Assembly (NCBI GenBank): GCA_000991645.1
Contig: LBRX01000003.1
Span: 1-59,195 of the forward strand
Length of the DNA stretch: 59,195 nucleotides
Source: Candidatus Moranbacteria bacterium GW2011_GWE2_36_40
Lineage (GTDB): Bacteria; Patescibacteriota; Minisyncoccia; Moranbacterales; GWC2-37-73
Reading direction: 5' to 3'
Positions within the stretch are counted from its first letter, which is position 1, and every line of letters begins with the position of its first letter. Below are positions 1-57,437 of the stretch, piece after piece. A program made the position numbers and the translations under genes. The notes below the pieces were generated by a model. That model did no database searches and had not been told where the DNA came from. It saw nothing but the letters and a program-made list of their open reading frames with translations.

Positions 1-110
1 TGGGGCTTAATTCTAAGTGCTGGTTGTGGCATAGTTTTGTTTTTGTTTTAGGGGGCTTACAAAACTATTATAGCACGAATTTATTTGATTTGGTATAATG
101 ACTAAATTTT

Positions 111-183
111 CAAATGTTTGAAAATTGATGCATTGAAAAATTGAAAATTGTTTGAAAATTGAAAATTGTGAATTGAAAATTGA
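111..183. repeat. short-period tandem array (GAAAATT/GAAAATTG units)
   Basis: Direct reading: tttgaaaattga..ttgaaaaattgaaaattgtttgaaaattgaaaattgtgaattgaaaattg. The same motif recurs at 713-790 and 29930-29975. Confidence 0.8.
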
Positions 184-13606: not shown

Positions 13607-13718
13607 TTTGAATAATTTTGAATTTTGAATGAATTTTTAATGATTAAATTTTTTAATGTTTGAAACATTACGTCATTCAGATTTGATTCGAAATTCGAAA
13701 TTCAGAATTCGAAATTTA
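13607..13718. repeat. AT-rich MITE-like intergenic element, copy A
   Basis: (ttttgaa)n-tgaatttttaatgattaaattttttaatgtttgaaacattacgtcattcagatttgattcgaaatt-(cgaaatt)n. Nearly identical to 57302-57437 and related to 15927-16031. Confidence 0.8.
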
Positions 13719-15334: not shown

Positions 15335-16568
15335 ATTTCAAAAGTACTTCCGCAATTTCCCTTGCACATTTGTCCCAACTGAACCTTTTCACGTTCTCCA
15401 GACCTTTCTGTATTATAGCATTTTTTAAGCTTTCGTCCGAGATGAGCTTAAAAATGTTTTCGGCAATGTCTTGAGGGTCTTGGGGATTGACCAATAGGGC
15501 AGAATATTGCTCCCCACCCTCATCCGCCCCGATTGCTATCGGGGCACCTTCTCCCGGAGAGAGAAGGTGTTTTGAATGGACTATTTCAGGCACTGACGAG
15601 TTATCGGAAGCCACAACAGCACAACCAACACTTTGCGCTTCTAGAACAGGAATTCCAAAACCTTCATACAAGGTTGGGAAAACAAAAACATCAGCTTTTT
15701 TTAATAATTCCCACTTTTCTTCTTCGGATATAAAACCTAGTTCAGCAATATCTTCCTTGTATTTGGAATTTGTAATTTGTAGTTTGATATTTTCATATCC
15801 GTGCCCCGGTTTTCCAGCCAATACCAACTTATGTGAAATATTATATTTCTCCTTCAAAATTTCAAAAGCTTTAATAATATTGGAAATATTTTTCCGTTCT
15901 TCAATGCGACCAATGAATAAAAGAAATTTTGAATTTTGAATTTTGAATTTTGAATAAATTTCTAATGTTTTAATTTTCGAAATTTTTTCATTCTGATTTG
16001 ATTCGAAATTGGAAATTGGAAATTGGAAATTATCATATCCCTCATATATAACACGCACTTTATCTTCTTTTACATTGTACAATCTAACTAAGTCTAACTT
16101 TGTATTTTCAGATACAGATATGATAGTTTTTGCCCACTGACATGATTTCTTAATCGTTCCGCGCATATAAACACGATCCCACCAAGAATAAGATTTTTTA
16201 CAAAATTCATATTCTAACCCATGAATAACTACAACAGTATTTTTAGAGTGAACAACTGGCACAGTATGAGCAGGCACAAAAAGAACATCAACTGGGTGTA
16301 ATAACATTTCCAAGGATAAGCCAAGCTGCGTCCAAAATCTAGGAAATTTAATCACCTTTATTCGCCAACTTTTTGGCAATTCCAAATCATTAATTTTAAC
16401 AACTCCGTTGTAAGTTGTAAGTTGTAAGTTGTAAGTTTTTTTAACATACAAAACAACCTGATGATCCTTTAATTTATCACGCAGGTTTTTGATGACTTGA
16501 TATGAATATTCTTCAATTCCAGTTCTGTTTTCTATAAAAGCCCGAGAGCCATCAATACCAATTTTCAT
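15333..16568 (-). CDS. GT4-family glycosyltransferase with three in-frame repeat insertions
   Basis: ..LFIGRIEERKN.. and ..FPTLYEGFGIPVLEAQSVGCAVVAS.. are GT4 signatures. Insertions lie at 15510-15568 (GC palindromes), 15927-16031 (AT-rich element) and 16407-16437 (gttgtaa x4). Confidence 0.8.
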   Translation of the reverse strand: MKIGIDGSRAFIENRTGIEEYSYQVIKNLRDKLKDHQVVLYVKKTYNLQLTTYNGVVKINDLELPKSWRIKVIKFPRFWTQLGLSLEMLLHPVDVLFVPAHTVPVVHSKNTVVVIHGLEYEFCKKSYSWWDRVYMRGTIKKSCQWAKTIISVSENTKLDLVRLYNVKEDKVRVIYEGYDNFQFPISNFESNQNEKISKIKTLEIYSKFKIQNSKFLLFIGRIEERKNISNIIKAFEILKEKYNISHKLVLAGKPGHGYENIKLQITNSKYKEDIAELGFISEEEKWELLKKADVFVFPTLYEGFGIPVLEAQSVGCAVVASDNSSVPEIVHSKHLLSPGEGAPIAIGADEGGEQYSALLVNPQDPQDIAENIFKLISDESLKNAIIQKGLENVKRFSWDKCAREIAEVLLK

Positions 16569-20461: not shown

Positions 20462-21542
20462 TTATTGACGGTCGCAAATATGTGTAGCATCATGGTGGAT
20501 TATCTTTTCGATATCTTTTTTAATATTGTATCCATTACAATGCCTTAATATTCCCAAATATGACTGCAGACTACCATTAAATGTTTTTTCTGAGATAATT
20601 TTCTTTTGAAAATTATCCCTATTTTCTTTGATTTTTCGCAAAACTCTTTTTCTGGTTTTTGCACGAAAAATTCGATGATGAGGAAACGCAACATACCCAA
20701 GAAAATCTACACCTTGTCGATACTTTCTAATTATTATTTTATTCGGATGTAAAATTAATTTCAATCTATCTTCAAGAAAATTATCAACCAGCGCAACAAT
20801 TTCCTCGAGATGTTTCCTATTTTCACTTAAAAAAATAAAATCATCGCAATATCGCAAATAATATTTTTCCCTCAAAATATGTTTTGCGAACTGATCAAGC
20901 TCATTGAGATAAATATTAGCAAAAAGTTGACTAGTGACATTCCCAAGTGGCAGACCTTTTGAAAAACTTTTAATTATTTTTTCCAAAAGCAAAAAAGCAT
21001 CTTTGTTTTTTATTTTTCTTTTTATCATTTCCAATAAAACATCCTGGTCAATTGAATCAAAAAAATTTTCTAACATCGCATTTGAGTGCAAAAATATTTT
21101 TATGATTATTACTGCTAGCTTTTTGCAAAAATTCCTCCAACCGATTCACTGCGCGATGAGTTCCCTTTTCCAGCCTGCAAGAATATGAATCGAAAACAAA
21201 AGATTTATCAAAAATGGGATACAGAATTCGAAAAATTGCATGATGCAAAACGCGATCTCTAACTGTTGCTTTATGAATTAGTCTTAATTTTGGATCACAA
21301 ACGTTAAATGCGGTATACTGATCATGTTGGTATGATTTGTTTTTTAGTTCTTCATGCAAGGCAAAAAGATTATCTTCTAGATTAAATTCAAATTCCTGGA
21401 CATCTTGTTTAGTTCCTTTACTACGGCAAAATTCACGCCAAGCAAAAAACAAATTTTCGAGACTAATTATTTTTTCAAATAAATCATCATGGAAAACCTC
21501 ACAATTAAGACCACCCCCCCCCAGCACAGTCAATGATTTCAA
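20462..21542 (-). CDS. DGR-type reverse transcriptase, split into two ORFs by a frameshift at a T7 run
   Basis: Motifs are ..PLGNVTSQLFANIYLNELD.. (DGR hallmark [I/L]GxxxSQ) and ..YLRYCDDFIFL.. (YxDD). The ORFs 21057-21542 and 20462-21091 join as ..RKFF|DSIDQD.. if one T of the run at 21059-21065 is removed. Only a TTG/GTG start is available in the current frame. Confidence 0.85.
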
Positions 21543-21552
21543 AAATGTTCCC

Positions 21553-21915
21553 TTGGTGCATAAGATTTGTGAATTTTATAAATCTATTTATTTGCTTTCC
21601 CCCAAACTTTCCAAGCGCGACCGATTTGGAATATATGTAAAAATTGAAAATTCTTGTTTGGAAATAATGGATCTTATTATCGAAGCTGCATTAGTATCAA
21701 AACCAAGCAAACTACAGCTAATCCTTGTGGCTCGTGTGAAAATAGAAAAATTGAAACGCTTTTTTCGTATGATGTATGAGCTTAATATCATTGAATACAA
21801 AAAATATATTTTGTTTCAAACTTCACTTCAAGAAATTTCAAAAGACACTAACAATTGGATTTCATATTTGAAAAATACAAGAGCTACAACAAGTGAAAAT
21901 CCTACCCAGGAGTGA
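21553..21915 (+). CDS. avd: Avd-like four-helix-bundle accessory protein (TTG/GTG start), divergent from the RT
   Basis: ..ICEFYKSIYLLSPKLSKRDRFGIYVKIENSCLEIMDLIIEA..KIEKLKRFFRMMYELNII.. resembles the four-helix-bundle / 23S-IVS protein family used as DGR Avd. Paralogous to 34708-35061. Confidence 0.7.
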   Translation: MVHKICEFYKSIYLLSPKLSKRDRFGIYVKIENSCLEIMDLIIEAALVSKPSKLQLILVARVKIEKLKRFFRMMYELNIIEYKKYILFQTSLQEISKDTNNWISYLKNTRATTSENPTQE

Positions 21916-21950
21916 GCAGGATTTTTCACTGTCTATCAATAGGCAGTTTT

Positions 21951-22079
21951 GAAACTTCTTCGCGGGAACGCAGGCCGTCGCTGGCGTCGTCGGAATGGTA
22001 CCAATTGACGTTCATCTTGTCGTCATTGAAATTCACGTTCGGAACGTTGCCATCGGAGTTGCGAGAGCCAGCATTTTGT
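21951..22079 (-). repeat. DGR1 template repeat (TR1)
   Basis: Aligns base for base with 22467-22595. The 123-nt core has 17 mismatches, all at plus-strand T (adenine on the coding/minus strand) in this copy. Extending by 6 nt adds 4 more of the same kind. TR codons at the variable sites are mostly AAC/AAT. Confidence 0.9.
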
Positions 22080-22284
22080 CTGATTCTTTCCGTATCACCG
22101 ACAATTTTTTACAAAATTATCTGAGTTTTTCTGACTCACAGTCAGATTTTTTTATGAAGCATTGTTTTTCAACAAATCTTCGTTAAAATCAGACAAGCAG
22201 TTTCAAAAAACTACTTGGCAAATCGCTACCCAATTTTATTTTATAAAAAATATAATCAGACCGATTGTATTAGCCAATTTGTAT

Positions 22285-22318
22285 TATACACTTTCCGTCG
22301 ACCGACAGAAAGTGTATA
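22285..22318. repeat. 34-bp palindrome shared by both DGR loci
   Basis: tatacactttccgtcgaccgacagaaagtgtata. Differs at 2 positions from the perfect copy at 33633-33666. Confidence 0.85.
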
Positions 22319-22399
22319 AGTTTTAATCAGCCATATAAAAAACAAAAAAATACCAGTAATCAAAACCACCAGCTAAAGCTGGTGGATTATTTATGTATA

Positions 22400-22435
22400 A
22401 AAAGAGCGTCGCTTCGGAGTACCGAAAGCGACGCA
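22400..22435 (-). terminator. GC-rich hairpin/terminator just downstream of VR1
   Basis: gcgtcgcttcgg agta ccgaaagcgacgc, followed on the minus strand by tcttttt. A second 8-bp stem with a 4-nt loop, ccaccagc taaa gctggtgg, lies at 22366-22385. Confidence 0.65.
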
Positions 22436-22462
22436 TAGGATAAAAGTAAAATAGGAAAAAGG

Positions 22463-23203
22463 TTAAGAAACTACTTCGCGGGAACGCAGGCCGCCGCTGG
22501 CGCCGTCGGAACGGTACCAATCGACGTCCATCCTGTCGCCATCGAAAACCACGCGCGGAACGAGGCCATCGGAGCGGCGAGAGCCAGCACAAAGTGTGAC
22601 ATTTTTGATGTCGAGATGATTGCCTGTTTCATTAAAAAACTTTAGTTCATGAATCAAGCGCTCAGCCAACGTCTCAGTCTTTACGCCTTTTTCTTGGATA
22701 TCATCAGCAGAAAGATTTTTCAAATTTTCATCTGCCTCCTGAACATCCTTGACCCAAATAGCACGCACGCCATCTTTTGCGTTGCGCTCATTCCAGGTAA
22801 CTTTCTTGTCTAGATCATCATTTGTCCAACGCCAGCATGGAAACAACTCTTTGCATTTTGCGTAAAGCTGCTCAAGTGAAAGATCTTCAATGATAAGCAG
22901 CCGCCACTCACCCTCAGGTTTTTCCGGGATTCTAACATTTGAATAGTCACAAAAACCACCAAATGTTTTCCGATAAAAATCCTGCCAGTCAATAATAATA
23001 TCTAACTGAACATCTGCGAATTGTGTCTTCGCAAATGGATTGCGATGTTCCACCAGTGCCTGCAAATGATCCAGCGTCAGACCTTTGCCAGGATTTTTCA
23101 TCCCCAATAAAAGCTGTCTCCAAATTTCTGCTGAAATCTTTGCAAACTTTTCAAACCAGCTCGGCATCAGATCCGAACTTCCAACCATTTTTACTTTTTT
23201 CAT
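22463..23203 (-). CDS. DGR1 variable target protein (246 aa, no signal peptide)
   Basis: The C-terminal 43 codons are VR1 (..LCAGSRRSDGLVPRVVFDGDRMDVDWYRSDGASGGLRSREVVS*). The N-terminal domain carries no motif I recognise. Confidence 0.85.
   Translation of the reverse strand: MKKVKMVGSSDLMPSWFEKFAKISAEIWRQLLLGMKNPGKGLTLDHLQALVEHRNPFAKTQFADVQLDIIIDWQDFYRKTFGGFCDYSNVRIPEKPEGEWRLLIIEDLSLEQLYAKCKELFPCWRWTNDDLDKKVTWNERNAKDGVRAIWVKDVQEADENLKNLSADDIQEKGVKTETLAERLIHELKFFNETGNHLDIKNVTLCAGSRRSDGLVPRVVFDGDRMDVDWYRSDGASGGLRSREVVS
22467..22595 (-). repeat. DGR1 variable repeat (VR1)
   Basis: 3' end of the target ORF, adjacent to the TAA stop at 22463-22465. See TR1 for the alignment. Confidence 0.9.
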
Positions 23204-23277
23204 GGCTAGTTCCTTTCCTTTTTTTGAATTTTTAAAGAGCCTATTCTCTTTAAATTACCATTAAATGGTAACAGTAC

Positions 23278-23306
23278 AGTCTAGCACAAAAAATAGCATG
23301 TGTCAA
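23278..23306 (-). promoter_or_regulatory. sigma70-type promoter of the DGR1 target (TTGACA-17-TAGACT)
   Basis: Minus strand reads ttgaca catgctattttttgtgc tagact. A perfect palindrome, ttaccatt t aatggtaa, lies just downstream in the 5' UTR. Confidence 0.6.
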
Positions 23307-23388: not shown

Positions 23389-23433
23389 GCATTTTGTTCG
23401 TAGATTCAAACATGTTTCGTAGTTTCGTATCGG
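23389..23433. repeat. partial copy of the ~95-bp ACGAAA palindromic element
   Basis: gcattttgttcgtagattcaaacatgtttcgtagtttcgtatcgg matches the right half of 28511-28604. Confidence 0.7.
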
Positions 23434-23434
23434 A

Positions 23435-24838
23435 TTACTTCAATTTTTTCACAGCATCCCGAAATTTATCCCCTCTATCAAATTCATTTGCAAAAAGTCC
23501 AAAACTAGCAGCTCCTGGTGAAAGCAAAACGACATCACCTTGTTCAGCTTTTTTTTGAGCCAATGCAGTTGCCTCTTCCATTGAACCAACAGTTTCAATG
23601 TTGCGCAAAAATTCTTCACTAGCAATTTTTCCAAGTTTTGCAAGAAGCTTTTCTGTCGCATTACCTTTTAATAAAATAGTATTTTTTGTTTTTTCAAAAA
23701 TTTCTTTTGCAAAATCAGTAAAATCCAAATTTTTATCAGTCCCACCCGCAATCAAAATGATTGGCTTTTCAAAAGCATTGAGGCCGGAAATAGCTGCGTC
23801 AGGAATTGTGGCCGCTGTATCGTTATAATATTTCACACCTCCAAGCTCACGCACAAATTCCAAGCGATGTGAGACACCCTTCAATTGCGGCAAAGCCTTC
23901 TTAATTTCTGCTGCACTAACACCAAAGGCATACACTGCTCCAATTGCAGCCATTACATTGGAAAGATTGTGTCTTCCAGGAATAAGAATGTCCTTGATTG
24001 AAACTATTTTTTTTACATCAATTCCATTATTAAGATATATAGCGTCATCCTCGATAAAAACAGCTCTACTACGTTTAAGTGGCTCATATGAAAAGCGCAC
24101 AACTTGAGCAGGAACTTCCTTGGTTGCCTCCTTAAGAAGTTCGTCATCATTATTCATAATCAACCAATCTTTGGGTTTTTGATTTGTGAAAATATATTTT
24201 TTATCCTGAAAATATTTTTCCATCGTGCCATAATAATTCAAATGGTCAGGCATAATATTTTTAAACACGGCTATGTGCGGACTAAGCTTTGCTCGTCCCA
24301 AAGCAGAAAGCCGCCAAGAAGAAAGCTCGAACACCACAATTGAATCTTTTTTTAACAGCAATAACTTATCCAACACAGAAACTTGCCCAATACCTATCTT
24401 TATTGGATTTTTTCCAACTGTTTTTAAAATTTCATAAATAAGAGTAGCTGTAGTAGTTTTTCCTTTAGTTCCAGTTACTCCAATTATTTTATTTTTACAA
24501 AGCTTAAAAAAAAGACTTGAATCCATTTCCACCGGAACTTTGCTTTCAAGAGCAAATTTAATATGTTTATCAGACCAAGAGGCTGCTGGATTTTTAATGA
24601 CCATATCAACCTTTGAAAAATCTTCCATTCGATGATGACCAAGCACATATTCAACATTCTTAAGCCCTTTTAATTTTTCCAGCGCTACGCTTAATTGCTC
24701 CTTTGTTCGCAGGTCAGTTGCAATAACCTTAGCTCCTTGCGCCACCAAAAACTTCACAGTGCCAACTCCGCCACCATGAAGACCAATACCCATGACTGTT
24801 ATTTTTTTGTTCTTGAAATAACTATCAACTATCAACAT
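23435..24838 (-). CDS. murD: UDP-N-acetylmuramoylalanine--D-glutamate ligase
   Basis: ..VMGIGLHGGGVG.. N-terminal Rossmann domain, ..GVTGTKGKTTT.. Mur ligase P-loop, ..LLSPGAASFGLF... Confidence 0.93.
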   Translation of the reverse strand: MLIVDSYFKNKKITVMGIGLHGGGVGTVKFLVAQGAKVIATDLRTKEQLSVALEKLKGLKNVEYVLGHHRMEDFSKVDMVIKNPAASWSDKHIKFALESKVPVEMDSSLFFKLCKNKIIGVTGTKGKTTTATLIYEILKTVGKNPIKIGIGQVSVLDKLLLLKKDSIVVFELSSWRLSALGRAKLSPHIAVFKNIMPDHLNYYGTMEKYFQDKKYIFTNQKPKDWLIMNNDDELLKEATKEVPAQVVRFSYEPLKRSRAVFIEDDAIYLNNGIDVKKIVSIKDILIPGRHNLSNVMAAIGAVYAFGVSAAEIKKALPQLKGVSHRLEFVRELGGVKYYNDTAATIPDAAISGLNAFEKPIILIAGGTDKNLDFTDFAKEIFEKTKNTILLKGNATEKLLAKLGKIASEEFLRNIETVGSMEEATALAQKKAEQGDVVLLSPGAASFGLFANEFDRGDKFRDAVKKLK

Positions 24839-24860: not shown

Positions 24861-25220
24861 TTATTTTTTCAATTTCTTTTTAAATCCTCCGAGTTGTTTA
24901 GATATAACTTCACATAATGAATAAATTTCTTGATATTTCTCACTACTTAAAAGCCCTGTGATTCTTAACGTATCTACGCCCGCTAATACCTCATACAGAG
25001 AACCAAGTGAGATATCAAGAAAACGATTAAAATCCTTGTCAGATTCTTTTCCTCCACCTTCTGCGATATTCAATATAACTGAAAGCGCAGCTCTCATCAA
25101 TTGCGCACCTATTTCGAACCTATATTCTCTAGGGAGTATATGCACTATTTCAAAAATTATCAAGTATAATTTTTGTGAATCCTTATATACAGTCCACTCT
25201 AAAAATCTAAACTTATTCAC
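24861..25220 (-). CDS. orphan four-helix-bundle (Avd/23S-IVS-like) protein
   Basis: ..LPREYRFEIGAQLMRAALSVILNIAEGGGKESDKDFNRFLDISLGSLYEV.. is the classic four-helix-bundle family signature (..NIAEG..). Flanked by ACTATCA-type (24815-24850) and GTTGTTA-type (25225-25275) arrays. Confidence 0.8.
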   Translation of the reverse strand: MNKFRFLEWTVYKDSQKLYLIIFEIVHILPREYRFEIGAQLMRAALSVILNIAEGGGKESDKDFNRFLDISLGSLYEVLAGVDTLRITGLLSSEKYQEIYSLCEVISKQLGGFKKKLKK

Positions 25221-28502: not shown

Positions 28503-28510
28503 GTTTGTTT

Positions 28511-28604
28511 ACCGATACGAAACTACGAAACGTACACAAATCTACGAAAACATTTTTTGCATTTTGTTCGCAGATTCGAATGTCATTCGTTGTTTCGAAT
28601 CGCG
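28511..28604. repeat. ~95-bp ACGAAA palindromic element, copy A
   Basis: accgatacgaaactacgaaacgtacacaaatctacgaaaa..ttttgttcgcagattcgaatgtcattcgttgtttcgaatcgcg. The arms are imperfect reverse complements. Confidence 0.85.
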
Positions 28605-28607
28605 TTT

Positions 28608-28802
28608 TTATTTTTTTGCTACTTTTTTAACTGTATTCACAACCTCATTTCCCTTATAGAAGCCACAATGCGGACAAACTCTGTGTGCAAGTTTGTCTTT
28701 GCCGCATTTTGAACAAGTCTGAGTTTTTACTTGCTCAATTGCAAAACGATCACGTTTTGCATCCCTTCTTTGTTTTGTGTGTCGTTGTTTTGGTACTGAC
28801 AT
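28608..28802 (-). CDS. rpmF: 50S ribosomal protein L32
   Basis: MSVPKQRHTKQRRD.. N-terminus and CSKCG..CPHCG zinc ribbon. Confidence 0.9.
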   Translation of the reverse strand: MSVPKQRHTKQRRDAKRDRFAIEQVKTQTCSKCGKDKLAHRVCPHCGFYKGNEVVNTVKKVAKK

Positions 28803-29695: not shown

Positions 29696-29979
29696 CTTAT
29701 TTTGTATTTTGTATATAATGTGATATTATTAAATCATTAAAATATCTTGCAAAACCCAATGGCCTTGTCCCTGGGGGATGGAGATAAAATAAGCATATGA
29801 ACAAGATTTATTTTTCAATATATTAATATCTGCATTTTATAGCCCACTATTTATAGTGAGGTTTTTTAATTTCTAATTTCCAATTCCTAATTTCTAAACA
29901 ATTTTCAATGACACAATTTCAAAATTTAAAAATTGATTCATTGTTTGAAAATTGAAAATTGAAAATTGAAAATTTTCCC

Positions 29980-33631: not shown

Positions 33632-34701
33632 TTATACACTTTCCGTCGGCCGACGGAAAGTGTATATTTTTTCAATTTGTTTTTGAATATTGTGACCCTT
33701 GCAATGCTTTAGAATTCCCAAATAAGATTGCAGACTTTGATTAAGCTTTTTCTCTGAAATTAAACCCTCTTGGAAATCAGCATATTTCTTACCTAGCTTT
33801 TTAAACATCCTTCTTTTTGTGTTTGTCCGCAAAACTGAGTGATGCGGTCTCAAAACATATCCTAAGAAATCTATGCCTTGATGAAATTTATCAATTGAAA
33901 CCTTGCTTGGATGTAGCTGCAATTTCAATTCTTTTTCCAAAAATTCATCTATCAAATTTAAAATATCATTAAGATATGCCTCATCTTGGTGTATAATAAT
34001 AAAATCATCTGCATAACGAAAATAATTTTTCGCTTTAATTTTTCTTTTTATGAACCAGTCCAATTCATTGAGATATATATTAGCAAATATCTGCGACGTT
34101 ATATTACCAATTGGCACACCTCGTTTTTCTTCAAAAAATTCATCCCGTAAGACCCCCCCACCACGGAAACATCCTCGGAGGAAAAGCTAAGGATAATTTC
34201 TTCGACTAGTCGCATAAATTTCTCATCTGCAATCTTACACGCAATCAATTGCAAAAGTTTTCTTTGATTTATGCTGGCAAAGAATTTTTTGATGTCACAT
34301 TTTAGTGCAAAAACCGGTCGAGTAAAATTTCTACTTTCCCTGCGCAAACATTTTAAAAGATTTTTGACTGCAAGATGTGTTCCCTTGTTTTTTCTTGATG
34401 AATAAGCATGAAAAATGAAATGTGGATCAAAAATATCATTCAGCTTCTCAAACACCAAATGTTGCACGATACGATCTCTTACTGTCGCCTTACTTATAAT
34501 TCTGTGCCTCGGATCATGAATATGAAAAATTTCATATTCTCCATGTTGATATGATTGATTCTCAAGCTCTTCTTGCAAAAGAAAAAGATTATCCTCCAAA
34601 AATCTTTCAAAAATTTGCACGTCTCGCCTGCCGTGTTTTCCATTTCTAAATTCTTTCCAAGATTGAAAAATGTTTTCAAGACTAATCAATTCATCATACA
34701 T
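33632..34701 (-). CDS. DGR-type reverse transcriptase, split into two ORFs by a frameshift at a G7 run
   Basis: ..VPIGNITSQIFANIYLNELD.. and ..YFRYADDFIIIH... The ORFs 34099-34701 and 33632-34117 join as ..DVSVVGGGVLRDEFFEEKRGVPIGN.. if the C7 run at 34153-34159 (plus strand) were C8. Confidence 0.85.
33633..33666. repeat. perfect 34-bp palindrome overlapping the RT2 stop codon
   Basis: tatacactttccgtcgg|ccgacggaaagtgtata. It encodes the last 11 codons of RT2 (..IYTFRRPTESV*). Second copy at 22285-22318. Confidence 0.9.
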
Positions 34702-34707
34702 ATACTT

Positions 34708-35061
34708 ATGAACACTTATGCTAATAATGAGATTCCTGTAATCAAAAAAGTTTATACGCTTTACAAAACATTTTATGAATTTTCCAAATTATTTCCCAAA
34801 AAAGATAAGTATGTGTTAGGAAGCAAGTGCGAAGAATACATTATTGCAACTTTGGAATTGTTGCTTGCTGCCTCAAGCGCTCCCAAAAATGAGAAACAAA
34901 TTTTCATCAAACAAGCTAATATAAAATTCGATGCGCTCAAAATATTTATTCGCATTGCAAATGACATAAGGATGCTTGATACAAAAAAATATATTGCGAT
35001 TCAAAAACAGCTTCAAGAAATCGGACGCATGCTGGGCGGTTGGCAAAAATCATTGAATTAA
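34708..35061 (+). CDS. avd: Avd-like four-helix-bundle accessory protein, divergent from RT2 (6-nt gap)
   Basis: MNTYANNEIPVIKKVYTLYKTFYEFSKLFPKKDKYVLGSKCEEYIIATLELLLAA..IFIRIANDIRMLD..IGRMLGGW... Paralog of 21553-21915. Confidence 0.78.
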   Translation: MNTYANNEIPVIKKVYTLYKTFYEFSKLFPKKDKYVLGSKCEEYIIATLELLLAASSAPKNEKQIFIKQANIKFDALKIFIRIANDIRMLDTKKYIAIQKQLQEIGRMLGGWQKSLN

Positions 35062-35068
35062 AAAAGCT

Positions 35069-35096
35069 AAAGGAGCTCGCATTGAGCTCCTTTTTT
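35069..35096. terminator. hairpin plus T-run between avd2 and TR2
   Basis: aaaggagctc gcatt gagctccttt ttt. It is a strong terminator for plus-strand avd2. On the minus strand it follows TR2 with a weaker U tract. Confidence 0.7.
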
Positions 35097-35108
35097 ACAA
35101 TAGACACA

Positions 35109-35244
35109 ACCCGATGAAGAGCAAGCCAGACGAGTAGTTGTCGTTCGCATTCGCAAGGTTGTCGGTGTTGTTGAAGTTGAAGTTGTCATCGTTAGCCTTA
35201 GCGTAGAGAGAATACTCGGCGGACTGCCATGAATTTGCTTTTCT
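35109..35244 (-). repeat. DGR2 template repeat (TR2)
   Basis: The 130-nt core aligns with 35602-35731 with 7 mismatches. Six are at coding-strand adenines of this copy and one is a coding-strand C in TR versus T in VR. A 6-nt extension adds 5 more adenine-site changes. Confidence 0.88.
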
Positions 35245-35490
35245 CCTTCCATTTCACCAGAAATGAAAAATATCATCTCTTGAATTTTATTTCGCCCATT
35301 GTGAGCGCAAGAGAAAAACAAGTAGTGTCTAAGTTCTTCGCATGCTCTCTTGCAGTCTGAATTAATTCAATCTCAACGTGACAACAAGATTCTGATGCTC
35401 TATGAAGAATCATAGGATTTCGGCGACCTTGATCCATAAATCAAGATTCATTAACCTATTCTCATTTATCAATATATCAAAAATTTTTAG

Positions 35491-35527
35491 AAAAGAAAAG
35501 CGCGCAATACTTTTCAGTATCACGCGC
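35491..35527 (-). terminator. terminator of the DGR2 target gene
   Basis: gcgcgcaatac ttttca gtatcacgcgc, followed on the minus strand by ttttctttt. Confidence 0.6.
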
Positions 35528-35599
35528 ATAAAAAATTTTCTAAAGACCAAAGACCAAAATTCCGATCCAAGATCCAAAGAAAAAAAGTCCAAGAGCAGC

Positions 35600-36508
35600 C
35601 TACCCGATGAAGAGCAAGCCAGACGAGTAGCTGTCGTTCGCATCCGCAAGGTTGTCGGTGCAGTTAAAGTTGAAGTAGCCATCGTTAGCCTTAGCGTAGA
35701 GAGAATACTCGGCGGACTGCCATGAATTTGCAGCGCAGAGATATCCGGGAGTGTTGTAATTCTTTCCCAACACATCAGGATACATTGCCACAGCAGTCAT
35801 GATATCAATTGCGCCAGAAAGCAACAATGATTCCGGGAGCACGGCCATCTGCTGTCTGCCTGCATTAATAGAAAATCCTTGCGTTGGAAAAAATAATATT
35901 CCCACCACCGGACCTTCTGCCATTTTTGCAAGAAGTTTCTCGTGCCCACTACCTTCAATGATTCCTACCTTGCCAGTCAATTCTCCTTTGCGGTAGTTGT
36001 TGAAACTACGATTGGGAAATTGCTGCCTGTAAGATTTTTCCGCCACGACAAGAAAAATTTCTTCCAGACTTTTTCCGTAGTCAGTGACTTCAAGCTTCGG
36101 AAGGCAGATCGGCAACCACACGCCATTGAGCAAATTCAAAAGAAGTGAATCATTTCTCAATTGCTCAAACAACTCTTCGCTTCTTTTCGCAAATTCTTCA
36201 GTAGAAATCAACTGCATACTCTCAGCGTAAAGACTGGTCAAACTATTAATCCGCTCTGCATAGTCAATCTTCGGCTGGACAAGCTTGAAATTCTTGTTCG
36301 GATCGCAAACATTGCCAGTCAGTTCCTTCGGAATACAACGACCATTTTTATCGATGAGTTTTCTGATGACATCTTCAAAAGCCATCTTTTTTTCACCACG
36401 TAAAACTGCATCGAGATTTTCCCTACCACCAAACGCATCAACGATAGCAAGTATTGTTGGACCATCCAAACCCCTCAATTTTTCAAGAACTTCCGCTGTT
36501 GTACTCAT
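35600..36508 (-). CDS. DGR2 variable target protein (302 aa, no signal peptide)
   Basis: The C-terminus ..CAANSWQSAEYSLYAKANDGYFNFNCTDNLADANDSYSSGLLFIG* is VR2. TR2 encodes ..DDNFNFNNTDNLANANDNY.. at the same positions. Confidence 0.85.
   Translation of the reverse strand: MSTTAEVLEKLRGLDGPTILAIVDAFGGRENLDAVLRGEKKMAFEDVIRKLIDKNGRCIPKELTGNVCDPNKNFKLVQPKIDYAERINSLTSLYAESMQLISTEEFAKRSEELFEQLRNDSLLLNLLNGVWLPICLPKLEVTDYGKSLEEIFLVVAEKSYRQQFPNRSFNNYRKGELTGKVGIIEGSGHEKLLAKMAEGPVVGILFFPTQGFSINAGRQQMAVLPESLLLSGAIDIMTAVAMYPDVLGKNYNTPGYLCAANSWQSAEYSLYAKANDGYFNFNCTDNLADANDSYSSGLLFIG
35602..35737 (-). repeat. DGR2 variable repeat (VR2)
   Basis: 3' end of the target ORF, starting at the last base of the TAG stop (35600-35602). 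See TR2. Confidence 0.88.
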
Positions 36509-36896: not shown

Positions 36897-37289
36897 ATGT
36901 CATTAGAAAAAACAAAAATAAAAAGTTACACAGATTTAGATGTTTATCAAAGATCATATAAATTATCTATTATTGTATGCACTAAGGTCATTGTAAAACT
37001 TCCATCAGCAGAAAAATTTGGTTTAACTGATCAACTCGGAAGATCATCCAAGGCAATTCCAAGATTAATCGCAGAAGGCTTTGGCAAAAAACATCAGAAG
37101 AGAGGTTTTCACAAATATTTGGATGATGCGATGGCGGAAAATAATGAGTCTATTGTAAGTCTTTGCCAGATACGAGATATTTATGCTAATAATATTAATG
37201 CCAAATCGGTTCAGTTACTAATTGATGAATACGAAATAGTAGGAAAACAAATGTTTAGACTTAAACAAAGCTGGAGTAAATTTTCTTAA
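36897..37289 (+). CDS. orphan four-helix-bundle (Avd/23S-IVS-like) protein
   Basis: ..YTDLDVYQRSYKLSIIV..LTDQLGRSSKAIPRLIAEGFGKK..YLDDAMAENNES.. family signature. Flanked by the inverted repeats gtcattagcagta (36867-36879) and tactgccaatgac (37341-37353). Confidence 0.8.
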   Translation: MSLEKTKIKSYTDLDVYQRSYKLSIIVCTKVIVKLPSAEKFGLTDQLGRSSKAIPRLIAEGFGKKHQKRGFHKYLDDAMAENNESIVSLCQIRDIYANNINAKSVQLLIDEYEIVGKQMFRLKQSWSKFS

Positions 37290-39221: not shown

Positions 39222-40586
39222 ATGAATTATTTTATCAAAACTTTTGGTTGCCAGATGAATGTTAGCGACAGTGAACGAATTGCTGCTTTTTTAGAGGAGC
39301 ACAATTTTTCCAGTAGTGACAATATTAAAGAAGCTGACTTGGTTATTTTTAATACATGTGGCATCAAACAAACCGCTGAAAATAGAGCGTACAGCATGAT
39401 CAACAATTTACGTAAAGAGAAGAAACGAAATGTACAAATAATAATGACTGGTTGCCTTGCCAATCGCGCCGATGTTCAAAAAAGAATGAAATCAAAAGTT
39501 GATTTATTTTTCCCTGTTAAAGATATTAAAGAATTTGAAAATTGGATCATTGAAAATTATTTGGAAATTGGAAATTGGAAATTGGAAATTGCGGCACCAA
39601 ATAAAATTACCAACAAAGAAAATATCGCATATCTTTCTATTAATCCAAAATATAGTAGCAATTATGCCGCTTACGTTCCCATCATGACTGGCTGCAATAA
39701 TTTCTGCGCATACTGCGTTGTTCCAAATGCGCGAGGACGTGAAGTTTCTCGGCCTGCCGAGGAAATAATCAGTGAGATTAAAGACCTTATTGCAAAAGGA
39801 TACAAAAGCATTACGCTGCTGGGGCAGAATGTGAATAGCTATAAATCACCCACGACTATCAACTATCAACTATCAACAAAAAATGCTCAGAAGGAAATTA
39901 ATTTCGCTACGCTTCTCAAAAAAATTAATTCCATTCCAGGGAAATTCTGGATCAACTTTGTTTCCTCACATCCCAAGAATATGGATGATAAGTTGATTGA
40001 AACAGTGGTAAAAAGTAAAAAAGTTTGCGAATGGATTCATTTGCCTGTGCAAGCTGGCGATGATGATATTCTGCGCAAAATGAATCGGCGCTACACACAA
40101 AAACATTATTTAGAGCAAATCAAAAAAATACGAGCTGCGTTTAAGAAATACAAACCCCAACATCAATTTTCGATTTCATCTGACATTATCGTTGGCTTTC
40201 CAGGCGAAACAAAAAAACAGTTTCTTGAGTCAGCTGCGGTAATGAAAAAATCCAAATTTGACATGGTCTTTTTTGGACAATACTCTCCCCGCCCAGAAAC
40301 AGTGGCATGGAAAATGAAAGATAACGTTTCACAAAAGGAAAAGGTATGGCGCGAAAATTTTCTCAATGAAATTCTTAAGAAAACTGCTTTTACGAATAAT
40401 AAAAAGTATCTTAATAAAACTCTTGAAGTACTAATTGAAAAAGAAAAAGGCGGTTTTTACTTTGGAAAAACCAGAACACAAAAGAATGTAAAATTACAAG
40501 CAAAGAAAAAAGGACTTGTCGGAAAATTCACGAAAGTCCTTATAAAAAAAGCACATGCCTGGAATCTTGAAGGAGAAATCGACTAA
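39222..40586 (+). CDS. miaB: tRNA-i6A37 methylthiotransferase
   Basis: MNYFIKTFGCQMNVSDSE.., radical-SAM CNNFCAYCVVP, C-terminal TRAM-like region. In-frame repeat insertions at 39563-39590 and 39855-39877. Confidence 0.9.
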   Translation: MNYFIKTFGCQMNVSDSERIAAFLEEHNFSSSDNIKEADLVIFNTCGIKQTAENRAYSMINNLRKEKKRNVQIIMTGCLANRADVQKRMKSKVDLFFPVKDIKEFENWIIENYLEIGNWKLEIAAPNKITNKENIAYLSINPKYSSNYAAYVPIMTGCNNFCAYCVVPNARGREVSRPAEEIISEIKDLIAKGYKSITLLGQNVNSYKSPTTINYQLSTKNAQKEINFATLLKKINSIPGKFWINFVSSHPKNMDDKLIETVVKSKKVCEWIHLPVQAGDDDILRKMNRRYTQKHYLEQIKKIRAAFKKYKPQHQFSISSDIIVGFPGETKKQFLESAAVMKKSKFDMVFFGQYSPRPETVAWKMKDNVSQKEKVWRENFLNEILKKTAFTNNKKYLNKTLEVLIEKEKGGFYFGKTRTQKNVKLQAKKKGLVGKFTKVLIKKAHAWNLEGEID

Positions 40587-53860: not shown

Positions 53861-53925
53861 CTTTTTATTGTGGTGCGAACAAAGTCTGCGATAATCGCCT
53901 ACTTCTCCCACGAATTATAATTTAA

Positions 53926-54021
53926 ACCGATACGAAACTACGAAAATGGTACGAATCTACGAAAAAATATTTTTGCGTTTCGTTCGTAGATTCGAATTTT
54001 CATTCGTTGTTTCGAATCGGG
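53926..54021. repeat. ~95-bp ACGAAA palindromic element, copy B
   Basis: accgatacgaaactacgaaaatggtacgaatctacgaaaaa..cgttcgtagattcgaattttcattcgttgtttcgaatcggg. Confidence 0.85.
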
Positions 54022-54451: not shown

Positions 54452-54461
54452 ATTATTTTAT

Positions 54462-54555
54462 ACCGATACGAAACTACTAAACGTACACGAATCTACGAAA
54501 AATATTTTTGCATTTTGTTCGTAGATTCGAATGTCATTCGTTGTTTCGAATCGCG
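54462..54555. repeat. ~95-bp ACGAAA palindromic element, copy C
   Basis: Nearly identical to 28511-28604. Confidence 0.85.
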
Positions 54556-54559
54556 TTTA

Positions 54560-55105
54560 TTATATCTTAGTGATCTGTAAGAAATCCAATTCAACTGGAG
54601 TTTCACGTCCGAAAATTGTAACCAACACTTTGACCTTTCCTTTTTCCTCATCAAATTCTTGAACCTTTCCATCAAAATCTTTAAATGGTCCTTCGTTAAT
54701 CTTAACCGCATCACCATTTTTAAGATCAATTTTGTATTTTGGCTCAGAAACTCCCATGCGTTTTTTAAGCATCTCGATTTCTTTTGGATCAACCGGTGTT
54801 GGTGTTGTTCCGAGTCCAATAAATCCAGTCACATTCGGTGTGTTTCGAACAACATACCAAGATGCATCAGTCACAACCATATTTACCAATACGTATCCAG
54901 GATAAATTCGTTCTTCAATAACAGCTCTTTTTCCATTTTTAATCTTAATCTTGTTTTCCTTTGGAACCATTACATCAAAAATCAAATCTTGCATATCCAT
55001 TGATTCAATACGCTGTTTCAAATTTCGAGTAACATTATCTTCATAACCGGAATATGTGTGAATCACATACCAAGCTCGCCCATGATGTTGTGTCTGTTTC
55101 GCCAT
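54560..55105 (-). CDS. nusG: transcription termination/antitermination factor NusG
   Basis: ..WYVIHTYSGYEDNV.., ..PGYVLVNM.., C-terminal KOW ..GDAVKINEGPFKDFDGKV... Confidence 0.95.
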   Translation of the reverse strand: MAKQTQHHGRAWYVIHTYSGYEDNVTRNLKQRIESMDMQDLIFDVMVPKENKIKIKNGKRAVIEERIYPGYVLVNMVVTDASWYVVRNTPNVTGFIGLGTTPTPVDPKEIEMLKKRMGVSEPKYKIDLKNGDAVKINEGPFKDFDGKVQEFDEEKGKVKVLVTIFGRETPVELDFLQITKI

Positions 55106-55538: not shown

Positions 55539-55611
55539 GGGCCGGTAGCTCACCTGGTAGAGCGCCTCATTTGCACTGAGGAGGTAGCGGGTTCAAGTCC
55601 TGTCCGGTCCA
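55539..55611 (+). tRNA. tRNA-Ala (anticodon UGC), no encoded CCA
   Basis: Hand-folded cloverleaf. Acceptor gggccgg/ccggtcc has the G3:U70 Ala identity pair. Anticodon loop is ttTGCac and T-loop is gttcaag. Confidence 0.9.
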
Positions 55612-55827: not shown

Positions 55828-55901
55828 GGGCTTATAGCTCAGCTGGTTAGAGCGCGTCACTGATAATGACGAGGTCTCAAGTTCGAATCTTGATAAGCCC
55901 A
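55828..55901 (+). tRNA. tRNA-Ile (anticodon GAU), no encoded CCA
   Basis: Hand-folded cloverleaf. Acceptor gggctta/taagccc, anticodon loop ctGATaa, T-arm tcaag ttcgaat cttga. Confidence 0.9.
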
Positions 55902-57301: not shown

Positions 57302-57437
57302 AATTTTTAATTTCCAATTTTGAATTTTGAATGAATTCCTGCCTGCCAGAGGCAGGTTTAATGATTCAATTTTTTAATGTTTGAAACATTATGTCATTCA
57401 GATTTGATTCGAAATTCGAAATTCAGAATTCAAAATT
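57302..57437. repeat. AT-rich MITE-like intergenic element, copy C, carrying a nested 19-nt GC hairpin
   Basis: Colinear with 13607-13718, except that cctgcctgccagaggcagg is inserted inside the tgaatt|ttt run. Confidence 0.85.

Follow-up and report, generated by a model that had tools for sequence, protein, structure and literature searches.

A probably silenced diversity-generating retroelement in the chromosome of Candidatus Moranbacteria bacterium GW2011_GWE2_36_40

A stretch of 59,195 nt from Candidatus Moranbacteria bacterium GW2011_GWE2_36_40 (Patescibacteriota; GenBank assembly GCA_000991645.1, contig LBRX01000003.1, positions 1 to 59,195; hereafter the window) carries between positions 20,462 and 23,306 a diversity-generating retroelement (DGR), which we designate DGR1. 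The element is a genuine DGR, as judged from the adenine-specific divergence between its template region (TR) and its variable region (VR), the position of VR at the 3' end of an open reading frame (ORF), a TR rich in AAC and AAT (AAY) codons, a reverse transcriptase (RT) resembling the Bordetella enzyme (bRT), an Avd protein, and a GC-rich block that is similar to an initiation of mutagenic homing (IMH) sequence and is accompanied by hairpins. The RT gene of DGR1 is split by a one-base insertion and its VR does not vary among the assemblies in which the locus was found. The best explanation of the whole is probably that DGR1 was active until recently and has now been silenced.

The plus-strand segments 21951-22073 and 22467-22589 are offset by 516 nt and align without gaps over 123 nt with 17 mismatches, at every one of which the 21951 copy carries T, corresponding to A on the minus strand. 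Widening this core by 6 nt (22074-22079) added four mismatches of the same type and widening it by 5 nt at the opposite side added two, giving a pair (21946-22079 and 22462-22595) with 23 mismatches in 134 nt, all 23 of which fall on the 39 adenines of TR. By the hypergeometric distribution, such confinement has a probability of 9e-16 in the 134-nt pair and of 4e-13 in the 123-nt core. An independent repeat search returned the TR/VR pair as a 128-nt repeat with 85% identity. A first-pass annotation, made from the sequence alone, had described the gapless 123-nt repeat, its 17 mismatches and the four further differences in the 6-nt extension, and had proposed tabulating the mismatches by TR base; the alignment reproduced the former and the tabulation gave the result above. 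From TR to VR the substitutions were A to G (12), A to T (8) and A to C (3), and 21 of the 23 changed adenines occupy codon position 1 or 2. VR (minus strand, 22462-22595, core 22467-22589) makes up the final 44 codons and the stop codon of the target ORF at 22463-23203, and the TR copy (minus strand, 21946-22079) is non-coding; when read in the VR frame, TR gives RQNAGSRNSDGNVPNVNFNDDKMNVNWYHSDDASDGLRSREEVSK, with eight AAC or AAT codons, in agreement with the earlier description of a variable copy that closes the ORF and an invariant, non-coding copy with AAC or AAT at the variable sites. This pattern points to a VR that has been rewritten from TR through adenine-mutagenic retrohoming. There are no non-adenine differences between TR and VR, and the last homing event was therefore probably recent.

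A GC-rich block of 19 nt, GGCCTGCGTTCCCGCGAAG, is the same in both copies (plus-strand 21958-21976 in TR and 22474-22492 in VR), and the tails beyond it diverge, reading GTAGTTTCTTAAC after VR and GAAGTTTCAAAAC after TR. The VR copy, on the minus strand at the 3' end of VR, would correspond to an IMH and the TR copy to an IMH*. Folding placed two GC hairpins with 4-nt loops on the minus strand 3' of VR, at 22406-22434 and 22366-22385 (z = -7.3); the first has a stem of 12-13 bp and a UACU loop, while the second has an 8 bp stem, a UUUA loop and a T-run, and resembles an intrinsic terminator. Most relatives have a comparable strong hairpin, with a loop of 3-4 nt, and a T-run 30-70 nt past VR. 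The identical GC-rich block and the 4-nt-loop hairpins had been pointed out in the first-pass annotation, and their sequences fit the combination of IMH, IMH* and hairpin known from DGRs, with a putative role in homing.

A homologue of avd lies on the plus strand (21553-21915, 120 aa, with a TTG or GTG start), that is, on the strand opposite to RT and divergent from it. The four-helix protein (Avd1) matched the Pfam family bAvd with an E value of 1.3e-7 and 32.5 bits (cut-off 40) and matched NCBIfam DivGenRetAVD over its full length with an E value of 4e-12 and 46 bits (cut-off 80). It contains 20 K/R against 13 D/E residues, and orthologues of up to 63% identity occupy the equivalent inverted position in relatives. 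By sequence, Avd1 appears to be the accessory protein expected of a DGR. Two paralogues of Avd were also present in the window as free-standing four-helix-bundle genes of the 23S rRNA-intervening-sequence family (Pfam PF05635), one on the minus strand at 24861-25220, just beyond murD beside DGR1 (E value 8e-26 in our own scan), and one on the plus strand at 36897-37289, just upstream of the target gene of a second DGR (a precomputed match).

On the minus strand after TR, folding identified a stem-loop at 21888-21933 with a core stem of 13 bp (21896-21925) and a CUCC loop, which overlaps the 3' end of avd on the opposite strand. A stem-loop 3' of TR was found in 31 of 36 loci (34 relatives and the two DGRs of the window), and in 27 it starts no more than 20 nt from the end of TR. 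In Bordetella, a stem-loop just 3' of TR binds Avd (Handa et al., 10.1101/2023.10.23.563531), and an Avd-binding stem-loop just downstream of TR has been reported for 207 of 278 DGRs (bioRxiv 10.1101/2023.10.23.563531). The stem-loop of DGR1 matches this published element and by analogy may bind Avd. We also considered that the hairpin is a bidirectional terminator only, and set this aside since it fits the published Avd-binding stem-loop as well.

The RT region consists of two minus-strand ORFs in different frames, 21542-21057 (161 aa, ending in ALKCDVRKFF followed by TGA) and 21091-20462, which is in the +1 frame and contains the sequences DSIDQ, PLGNVTSQ and YCDDF. The first-pass annotation had recorded the PLGNVTSQ and YCDDF motifs and the Avd-like ORF, all of which are present; the two frames of the RT and the location of avd on the opposite strand did not appear in it. 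When one T is deleted from the run AGAAAATTTTTTTGATTC, a 359-aa RT results, whose best PDB match is the Bordetella DGR RT (8ub7_A, E value 1.4e-45, 159 bits), with an alignment that is unbroken across the junction; group II intron RTs matched the repaired RT with an E value of 1e-21 and 80 bits. The motif LGNVTSQLFANIY aligns with IGSLTSQLFANVY of 8ub7_A, the motif-4 signature being [I/L]GxxxSQ. The best PDB sequence match and this motif would place the enzyme in the DGR clade of RTs. It also matched Pfam RVT_1, and none of the NCBIfam models was hit above its cut-off, group_II_RT_mat (TIGR04416) reaching 149 bits against a cut-off of 300 and retron St85 64 bits against 235. Since group_II_RT_mat was the best-scoring NCBIfam model, the locus could be read as an ordinary duplication beside a retron or group II intron-type RT and not as a DGR. 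The probability of this reading is negligible: the score lies far under the cut-off and bRT is a far better match, no intron or retron RNA family of Rfam matched in the locus, 23 of 23 mismatches at TR adenines have a P of about 1e-15, and Avd and a conserved cassette recur in 34 relatives.

The frame of the RT gene is broken at a T7 run (plus-strand A7, 21059-21065), where a T6 to T7 insertion puts TGA straight after LKCDVRKFF, five codons past the motif-A aspartate. All 42 related RT genes that were compared read KFF(D/A/Y) in a single frame at this site, 20 of them with T6. The number of RT homologues exceeded 7000, the closest being single-ORF Patescibacteria RTs of 316-379 aa with at most 72% identity, and no intact RT allele above 72% identity was found among 5.8 billion proteins. 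The DGR had been called complete in the first-pass annotation, a description that does not hold for a gene split by the T7 insertion when its relatives are in frame in 42 of 42 cases. One could suppose that the split is a homopolymer error of assembly or sequencing and that the DGR is fully intact, the lesion being a single base within a T-run. This supposition is very improbable. The same T7 allele, with TGA after KFF, was present in ten assemblies spanning samples, years, assemblers and archives; long genes of the window are intact, for example the one encoding the 1187-aa DnaE; and the window has only two G/C runs of at least 7 nt and one A/T run of at least 9 nt. Because T7 recurs in assemblies from different samples and pipelines, the lesion is not a sequencing error; the frameshift is real and lineage-specific.

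The locus was recovered from ten assemblies in NCBI, JGI, ENA and Logan that derive from different runs and assemblers; these included NCBI GCA_000991815.1, JGI 3300025011 and 3300025000, ENA ERZ27254734, ERZ27254731 and ERZ909597, and Logan SRR29904086, SRR1658471 and SRR3309327. The copies were obtained through exact-protein look-ups; an exact-pattern scan of metagenome contigs with the 31-nt 3' end of TR returned no match. Nine of the ten match the window at 100% identity wherever they cover it (up to 3.1 kb), including T7, the G9 run near the start of RT and VR. JGI 3300025000 (L087) has a frame-breaking deletion of 29 nt in avd, corresponding to window positions 21757-21785, as its sole difference from the window; this variant suggests that decay of the element has begun. 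VR itself was identical in all ten, and at the consensus level no ongoing diversification was seen. The first-pass annotation had held that a complete absence of VR microheterogeneity together with a decayed TR would speak against its reading; the former is what the ten assemblies give, whereas TR is not decayed. The behavior of strains with an intact RT is different. The strains L012 and L013 are 99.6% identical over 6.7 kb and differ at 27 sites, 14 of which are in VR, all opposite TR adenines, and the assemblies of another strain (L098-L106) differ only in VR, by 2 and 16 substitutions, and in the length of a poly-G run; the VR changes of L101 relative to L102 and L105 likewise face TR adenines. 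As a separate observation, L012 and L013 also differ at four G/A positions inside TR (3555, 3558, 3564 and 3569). In the scheme that we propose, the RT of DGR1 would have been knocked out by the T6 to T7 change, an allele that at the consensus level is fixed in every available assembly and is accompanied by a frozen VR. Slippage back to T6 could in principle reverse the knock-out.

Several observations weigh against a silenced DGR1 or against parts of the description given here. The comparison was made at the consensus level, and minority T6 alleles or low-frequency VR variants would escape it. A single aquifer project is the source of several of the ten assemblies, which may therefore sample one clonal population. 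Apart from the frameshift both parts of RT are intact, and no damage is seen in TR, in the leader RNA described below (130 bits in a covariance model, equal to relatives) or in the IMH-like block, which makes the lesion young, tolerated or bypassed. The UUU-UGA context of the stop codon would permit a +1 slip of tRNA-Phe. Avd1 scores under the curated cut-offs of both Pfam and NCBIfam. A C-type lectin fold of the target protein is not established by the structure models, the best Foldseek match having an E value of 1.4 and the TM (template modelling) score reaching 0.41 at most. When all loci are taken together, the pairing proposed below between leader RNA and TR scores -8.4 kcal/mol for cognate against -7.9 for non-cognate pairs, a small gain, as the leader motif is nearly invariant; this pairing therefore remains a model.

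Among these points, the stop context leads to the alternative that DGR1 is active at a low level through +1 ribosomal frameshifting at UUU-UGA or through transcriptional slippage on U7, with the frameshift acting as a throttle. The change of frame coincides with TTT TGA, a site at which tRNA-Phe in the P site can re-pair with TTT one base on and frameshifting could occur as it does in prfB; moreover, the ORF halves and RNA elements are intact and TR and VR show zero non-adenine differences. We nevertheless consider low-level activity unlikely, as 0 of 42 relatives have a frameshift at the site and there is consequently no sign of selection for recoding, the site is without a Shine-Dalgarno-like stimulator upstream, a variant with an avd deletion exists, and VR is constant in ten assemblies while relatives with an intact RT vary. 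Programmed +1 frameshifting at UUU-UGA was for the same reason, that no relative frameshifts there, rejected as the principal explanation of the locus. A DGR1 that was recently active and is now silenced remains the reading that we favor.

The spacer between VR and TR appears to encode a conserved RNA. In an alignment of 24 loci, a TATAAT block directly follows the T-run of the target terminator, and a conserved domain then extends to TR. In the window, folding and alignment identified on the minus strand a palindrome of 16-17 bp (22283-22319), whose 3' arm holds a conserved extended -10 box, TGTATAAT (plus-strand 22283-22290), a likely promoter of the TR RNA as judged from its sequence. On grounds of homology and comparative structure, the template would be a discrete RNA, transcribed from this extended -10 promoter after the target terminators and consisting of a leader of about 200 nt, TR and the 3' stem-loop. 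Its predicted length is about 390 nt, from a start near 22278, some 7 nt past the -10 box, to an end near 21888. A palindromic element of 41 nt occurs in two copies with 90% identity in the window; copy 1 (22284-22324) overlaps the -10 box of the DGR1 TR RNA and copy 2 (33632-33672) overlaps the stop codon of RT2, the RT gene of the second DGR, which is convergent with dnaE.

The predicted leader (minus strand, 22073-22275) abuts TR and was delineated by RNAalifold, covariation and a covariance model. RNAalifold predicted a 5' hairpin, P1 (22258-22266 with 22221-22231), a long-range helix, P2 (22185-22196 with 22076-22087), whose 3' strand abuts and overlaps the first bases of TR, and an internal hairpin, P3 (22113-22121 with 22100-22108). 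The alignment further showed a conserved motif, GAAACUGC (22197-22204), with a U-run before it, and a likewise conserved unpaired motif, CGGUGAUACGGA. Across the 24 loci, RNAalifold found compensatory changes in 28 of 33 predicted pairs. In an independent count over 32 pairs, 92.5% of cells were paired, compared with 37-49% when the partners were slid, and double compensatory changes were seen in 27 of the 32 pairs, compared with 15-18 for slid partners; none of 500 shuffles was as good. A covariance model (R1) built from 22 loci scored 130 bits on the window at 22073-22275 and 39 bits at 35232-35358, where a diverged copy of the leader lies upstream of the TR of the second DGR. On held-out loci (L007, L008, L009, L011, L016, L041 and others), R1 gave scores of 91-143 bits, always just upstream of TR. 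On DGR loci from outside the candidate phyla radiation (CPR), it gave no match at E<0.1 and two chance-level matches of about 12 bits. Searches of Rfam 15 at gathering and E-value thresholds found no family for the leader and only chance-level matches in the locus.

Directly 5' of the P2 5' strand, the motif UUUUGAAACU (22197-22206) is complementary to the 3' end of TR, AGUUUCAAAA. The predicted energy of this pairing is -10.0 kcal/mol, a value that 3 of 500 shuffles reached. The second DGR has the motif AGACACUAC at the same place, complementary to its own TR 3' flank, GUUGUGUCU, and for the two elements the cognate pairs gave -10.0 and -9.9, compared with -2.3 and -5.8 for the cross pairs. 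In the loci L029 and L036 the motif covaries with the end of TR, GAAAC being changed to GAAAU together with a change of GUUUC to AUUUC. In most loci the motif pairs better with the end of VR than with that of TR, from which an RNA-guided recognition of the target might be proposed; this was rejected, since the two positions concerned belong to a GNN codon limited to Ala or Val, which accounts for the bias. For the Bordetella element, it has been reported that one strand of the spacer base-pairs with the 3' end of TR and supplies the priming adenosine, that the next spacer strand pairs just 5' of TR as the 'cPRT stop', and that further spacer elements bind RT (10.1101/2023.10.23.563531). By analogy, the leader resembles in its layout a circularly permuted Bordetella DGR RNA whose primer, stop and scaffold module sits 5' of TR, a position that would fit with antisense avd taking up the 3' side. 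The priming nucleotide is predicted at or beside the U/G after GAAAC. In this arrangement the motif (U)UUUGAAACU, 5' of P2, would pair with the TR 3' end and the other P2 strand would abut the TR 5' end, giving the topology of the Bordetella primer:template and 'cPRT stop' duplexes with the elements 5' and not 3' of TR; homology and comparative structure suggest as much.

The second DGR of the window, DGR2, has the same layout and lies 11 kb from DGR1 on the minus strand (33632-36508), with a target gene at 35600-36508, VR2 at 35602-35731, TR2 at 35109-35238, RT2 at 33632-34701, and, on the plus strand, avd2 at about 34708-35061. Of the seven differences between TR2 and VR2, six are at adenines. 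The RT2 frame breaks at a G7 run (34153-34159), where the addition of one G restores a 356-aa ORF, and G7 together with an identical VR2 was found in eight of eight assemblies. A counterpart of this internal run exists in the DGR RT of a Woesearchaeota (DPANN) locus (L049, 4594-4626), where a G11 followed by a scaffold gap (a run of N) is found at the same RT position, about aa 180, just before the GxPxGN motif. A DGR of the same architecture at so short a distance, and the documented ability of DGR components to act in trans (Wu et al. 2018, PMC5758913), raise the possibility that some other RT encoded in the genome, such as RT2, serves TR1/VR1 in trans, in which case the break in the RT of DGR1 would be of no consequence. 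We judge this improbable to a greater degree than low-level activity of the RT of DGR1 itself: RT2 is out of frame at G7 in all eight assemblies, the leader RNAs of the two elements are very unlike (130 versus 39 bits), each primer-like motif matches its own TR only, and VR1 is invariant.

At the junction of avd and RT, within the first codons of the RT frame, DGR1 carries a poly-G tract at 21514-21522, which is G9 on the minus strand and reads as C9 on the other. In the 59-kb window, which has a GC content of 36%, this C9 and the C7 at 34153-34159 are the only G/C homopolymers of at least 7 nt. Of 41 CPR loci, 37 have a run of G6-G11, mostly G9 or G10, in the 160 nt that precede the conserved RT N-terminus, compared with 2-3 of 38 distant DGR loci, and G/C runs of at least 7 nt are nearly absent elsewhere in those CPR loci (the L004-L045 set). 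Translated in the RT frame, the run gives Gly-Gly-Gly. Roughly half of the loci are without a canonical in-frame start upstream of it, and the conserved ATG upstream of the run is usually one base out of the RT frame. Clusters of proteins at 90% identity hold classes that differ in N-terminal length; one RT, for example, occurs as MNQGNIEAVGGGIK..., MNQGNIEAVGGGGIK..., MKLSGGGIK... and a truncated form. The contigs behind these classes, from the related strain L098-L106, have G8, G11, G9 and G10 and no other difference outside VR. In this strain, the ATG is in the RT frame only at G8 or G11, and gene callers start there, with products of 357 and 358 aa; on the opposite strand, ATG-CCCCCCCCC opens a long avd call only with C9. 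In the window, the ATG, 39 nt upstream, would likewise be in frame at G8 or G11, and the run is G9 in ten of ten assemblies.

Two other accounts of these features were tried. The conserved ATG might be the mere antisense of an avd His codon, an idea overturned by its being in frame at G8 and G11, where gene callers start RT, and the poly-G run might serve as a Shine-Dalgarno sequence, which fits a few loci (such as L023, with an ATG 4 nt after the run) and fails where only 1-4 nt separate the run from the conserved N-terminus. That the run is conserved, specific to this position and naturally polymorphic in length leads us to the hypothesis of a phase-variable or slippage-dependent gate on RT expression. 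RT and Avd would be supplied by divergent genes parted by a hypermutable poly-G tract, as homology and comparative structure also suggest. The arrangement recalls the homopolymeric-tract contingency loci of Neisseria, Campylobacter and Haemophilus, in which a G/C run of 8-11 nt similarly lies between divergent genes, where one ORF has its 5' end, differs in length among otherwise identical genomes and shifts an upstream ATG in or out of frame. It differs from them in that the gated gene is a mutagenic RT and not a surface or restriction-modification gene, with a putative effect on expression, and in that the strain of the window has G9 in every assembly, without length variation. More broadly, it is possible, if somewhat less than probable, that a Patescibacteria/DPANN lineage of DGRs combines a poly-G stochastic on/off switch of RT translation, placed at the avd/RT junction or, as in DGR2, within RT, with a circularly permuted DGR RNA whose primer strand, stop duplex and protein-binding elements are 5' of TR, and that both DGRs of the window are off (G9 and T7 in DGR1, G7 in DGR2). 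No paper linking DGRs to homopolymer tracts or slippage was found in a literature search, and the leader RNA and poly-G tract of CPR DGRs were not mentioned in the literature searched, which excluded the founding CPR study (Paul et al. 2017).

As a DGR, DGR1 is an ordinary element that adds one more to the large group already known from CPR. When GTDB representative genomes were scanned, 80 loci were obtained, 34 of which, all from Patescibacteria, share the order of target gene with VR, a spacer of 220-450 nt, TR, inverted avd and RT, with A-specific TR/VR mismatches. According to Wu et al. 2018 (PMC5758913), 90% of CPR DGRs have the B3 architecture, "TR-(avd)-RT", and a Patescibacteria-restricted clade (DGR clade 2) was defined by Roux et al. 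2021 (PMC8144416). With the order TR-(avd reverse)-RT in a Patescibacteria genome, DGR1 is by its sequence a chromosomal DGR of the Patescibacteria B3 type, for which an inverted avd was already known. It resembles the published elements (PMC5758913; clade 2, PMC8144416) in host group, gene order with inverted avd, AAY codons in the TR/VR pair, a target without recognisable domain, and an RT with homologues of 50-72% identity, and differs from them in the frameshift of its RT and the invariance of its VR.

A resemblance to the DGR of the Bordetella phage BPP-1 (mtd-avd-TR-brt) had been proposed in the first-pass annotation, and it holds in part. The two elements share adenine-specific transfer from TR to VR, an RT of the same clade with I/LGxxxSQ, Avd, a GC-rich IMH-like block, a hairpin with a 4-nt loop after VR, a stem-loop just after TR, and a duplex that abuts the TR 5' end beside a strand complementary to the TR 3' end. 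However, the BPP-1 element is phage-borne and DGR1 chromosomal, avd of DGR1 is inverted on the other strand between TR and RT, and the RNA elements around TR are arranged differently: a 140-nt spacer 3' of TR holds the primer, stop duplex, thumb-ring and RT-binding elements of BPP-1, whereas DGR1 has a conserved structured RNA 5' of TR and antisense avd on the 3' side. The target fold of DGR1 is also not demonstrably Mtd-like. Like the DGRs of Legionella pneumophila (LdtA) and Treponema denticola (TvpA), DGR1 is cellular and chromosomal and would diversify the C-terminus of a host protein, but for LdtA and TvpA a C-type lectin fold and export signals are established, neither of which is shown for the DGR1 target, and those elements have other accessory genes (MSL, HRDC) and architectures.

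The target gene (minus strand, 22463-23203) encodes a 246-aa protein with a helical N-terminal part and a C-terminal alpha/beta domain that ends in VR. The protein is 100% identical to the hypothetical protein US25_C0006G0002 of Candidatus Moranbacteria GW2011_GWE1_36_7 and has 278 homologues, mostly from CPR. No Pfam, NCBIfam or PDB sequence match was obtained. AlphaFold models had a pLDDT (predicted local distance difference test) of 91 for the whole protein and 94 for the C-terminal domain, and Foldseek searches with both models returned no significant match. The weak, near-full-length matches were to C-type lectin domains only (TM 0.27-0.41, E value of at least 1.4), and the DGR variable protein TaqVP matched the target less well than these domains did. 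A consensus scan found a putative promoter upstream of the target, TTGACA-17-TAGACT with TG, on the minus strand at 23278-23306.

DGR1 lies between murD and murA, in keeping with the flanks named in the first-pass annotation; the neighboring genes encode EPSP_synthase (MurA-type) and MurD-like/Mur-ligase domains. Repeated intergenic blocks beginning with ACCGATACGAAACTACGAAA and GCATTTTGTTCGTAGATTC are present in the window at 23389-23447, 28503-28617, 53918-53973 and 54454-54568, with one copy between the DGR1 target promoter and the end of murD. AT-rich intergenic repeats made of runs of the heptamers GAAAATT, GGAAATT and CGAAATT recur between genes throughout the window (99-181, 711-793, 13634-13716, 15951-16037, 29892-29974, 39508-39590 and 57355-57437), and two plus-strand tRNA genes (55539-55611 and 55828-55901) were its only Rfam matches at the gathering threshold.

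A silenced DGR1 would be of interest as a natural "off" control, its RT frameshift being recent and fixed and its VR frozen; the aquifer data sets that contain it also include related strains whose DGRs are intact and whose VR changes from sample to sample. Comparing DGR1 with active strains between samples would offer a direct handle on the speed of DGR loss or silencing. The leader RNA would extend the sole experimentally defined model of a DGR RNA to the most DGR-rich branch of life. If the poly-G gate is true, only a subpopulation would diversify its target at any time; the length shifts of the run suggest a phase-variable form of targeted hypermutation, which would explain how symbionts with tiny genomes limit the cost of a mutagenic RT.

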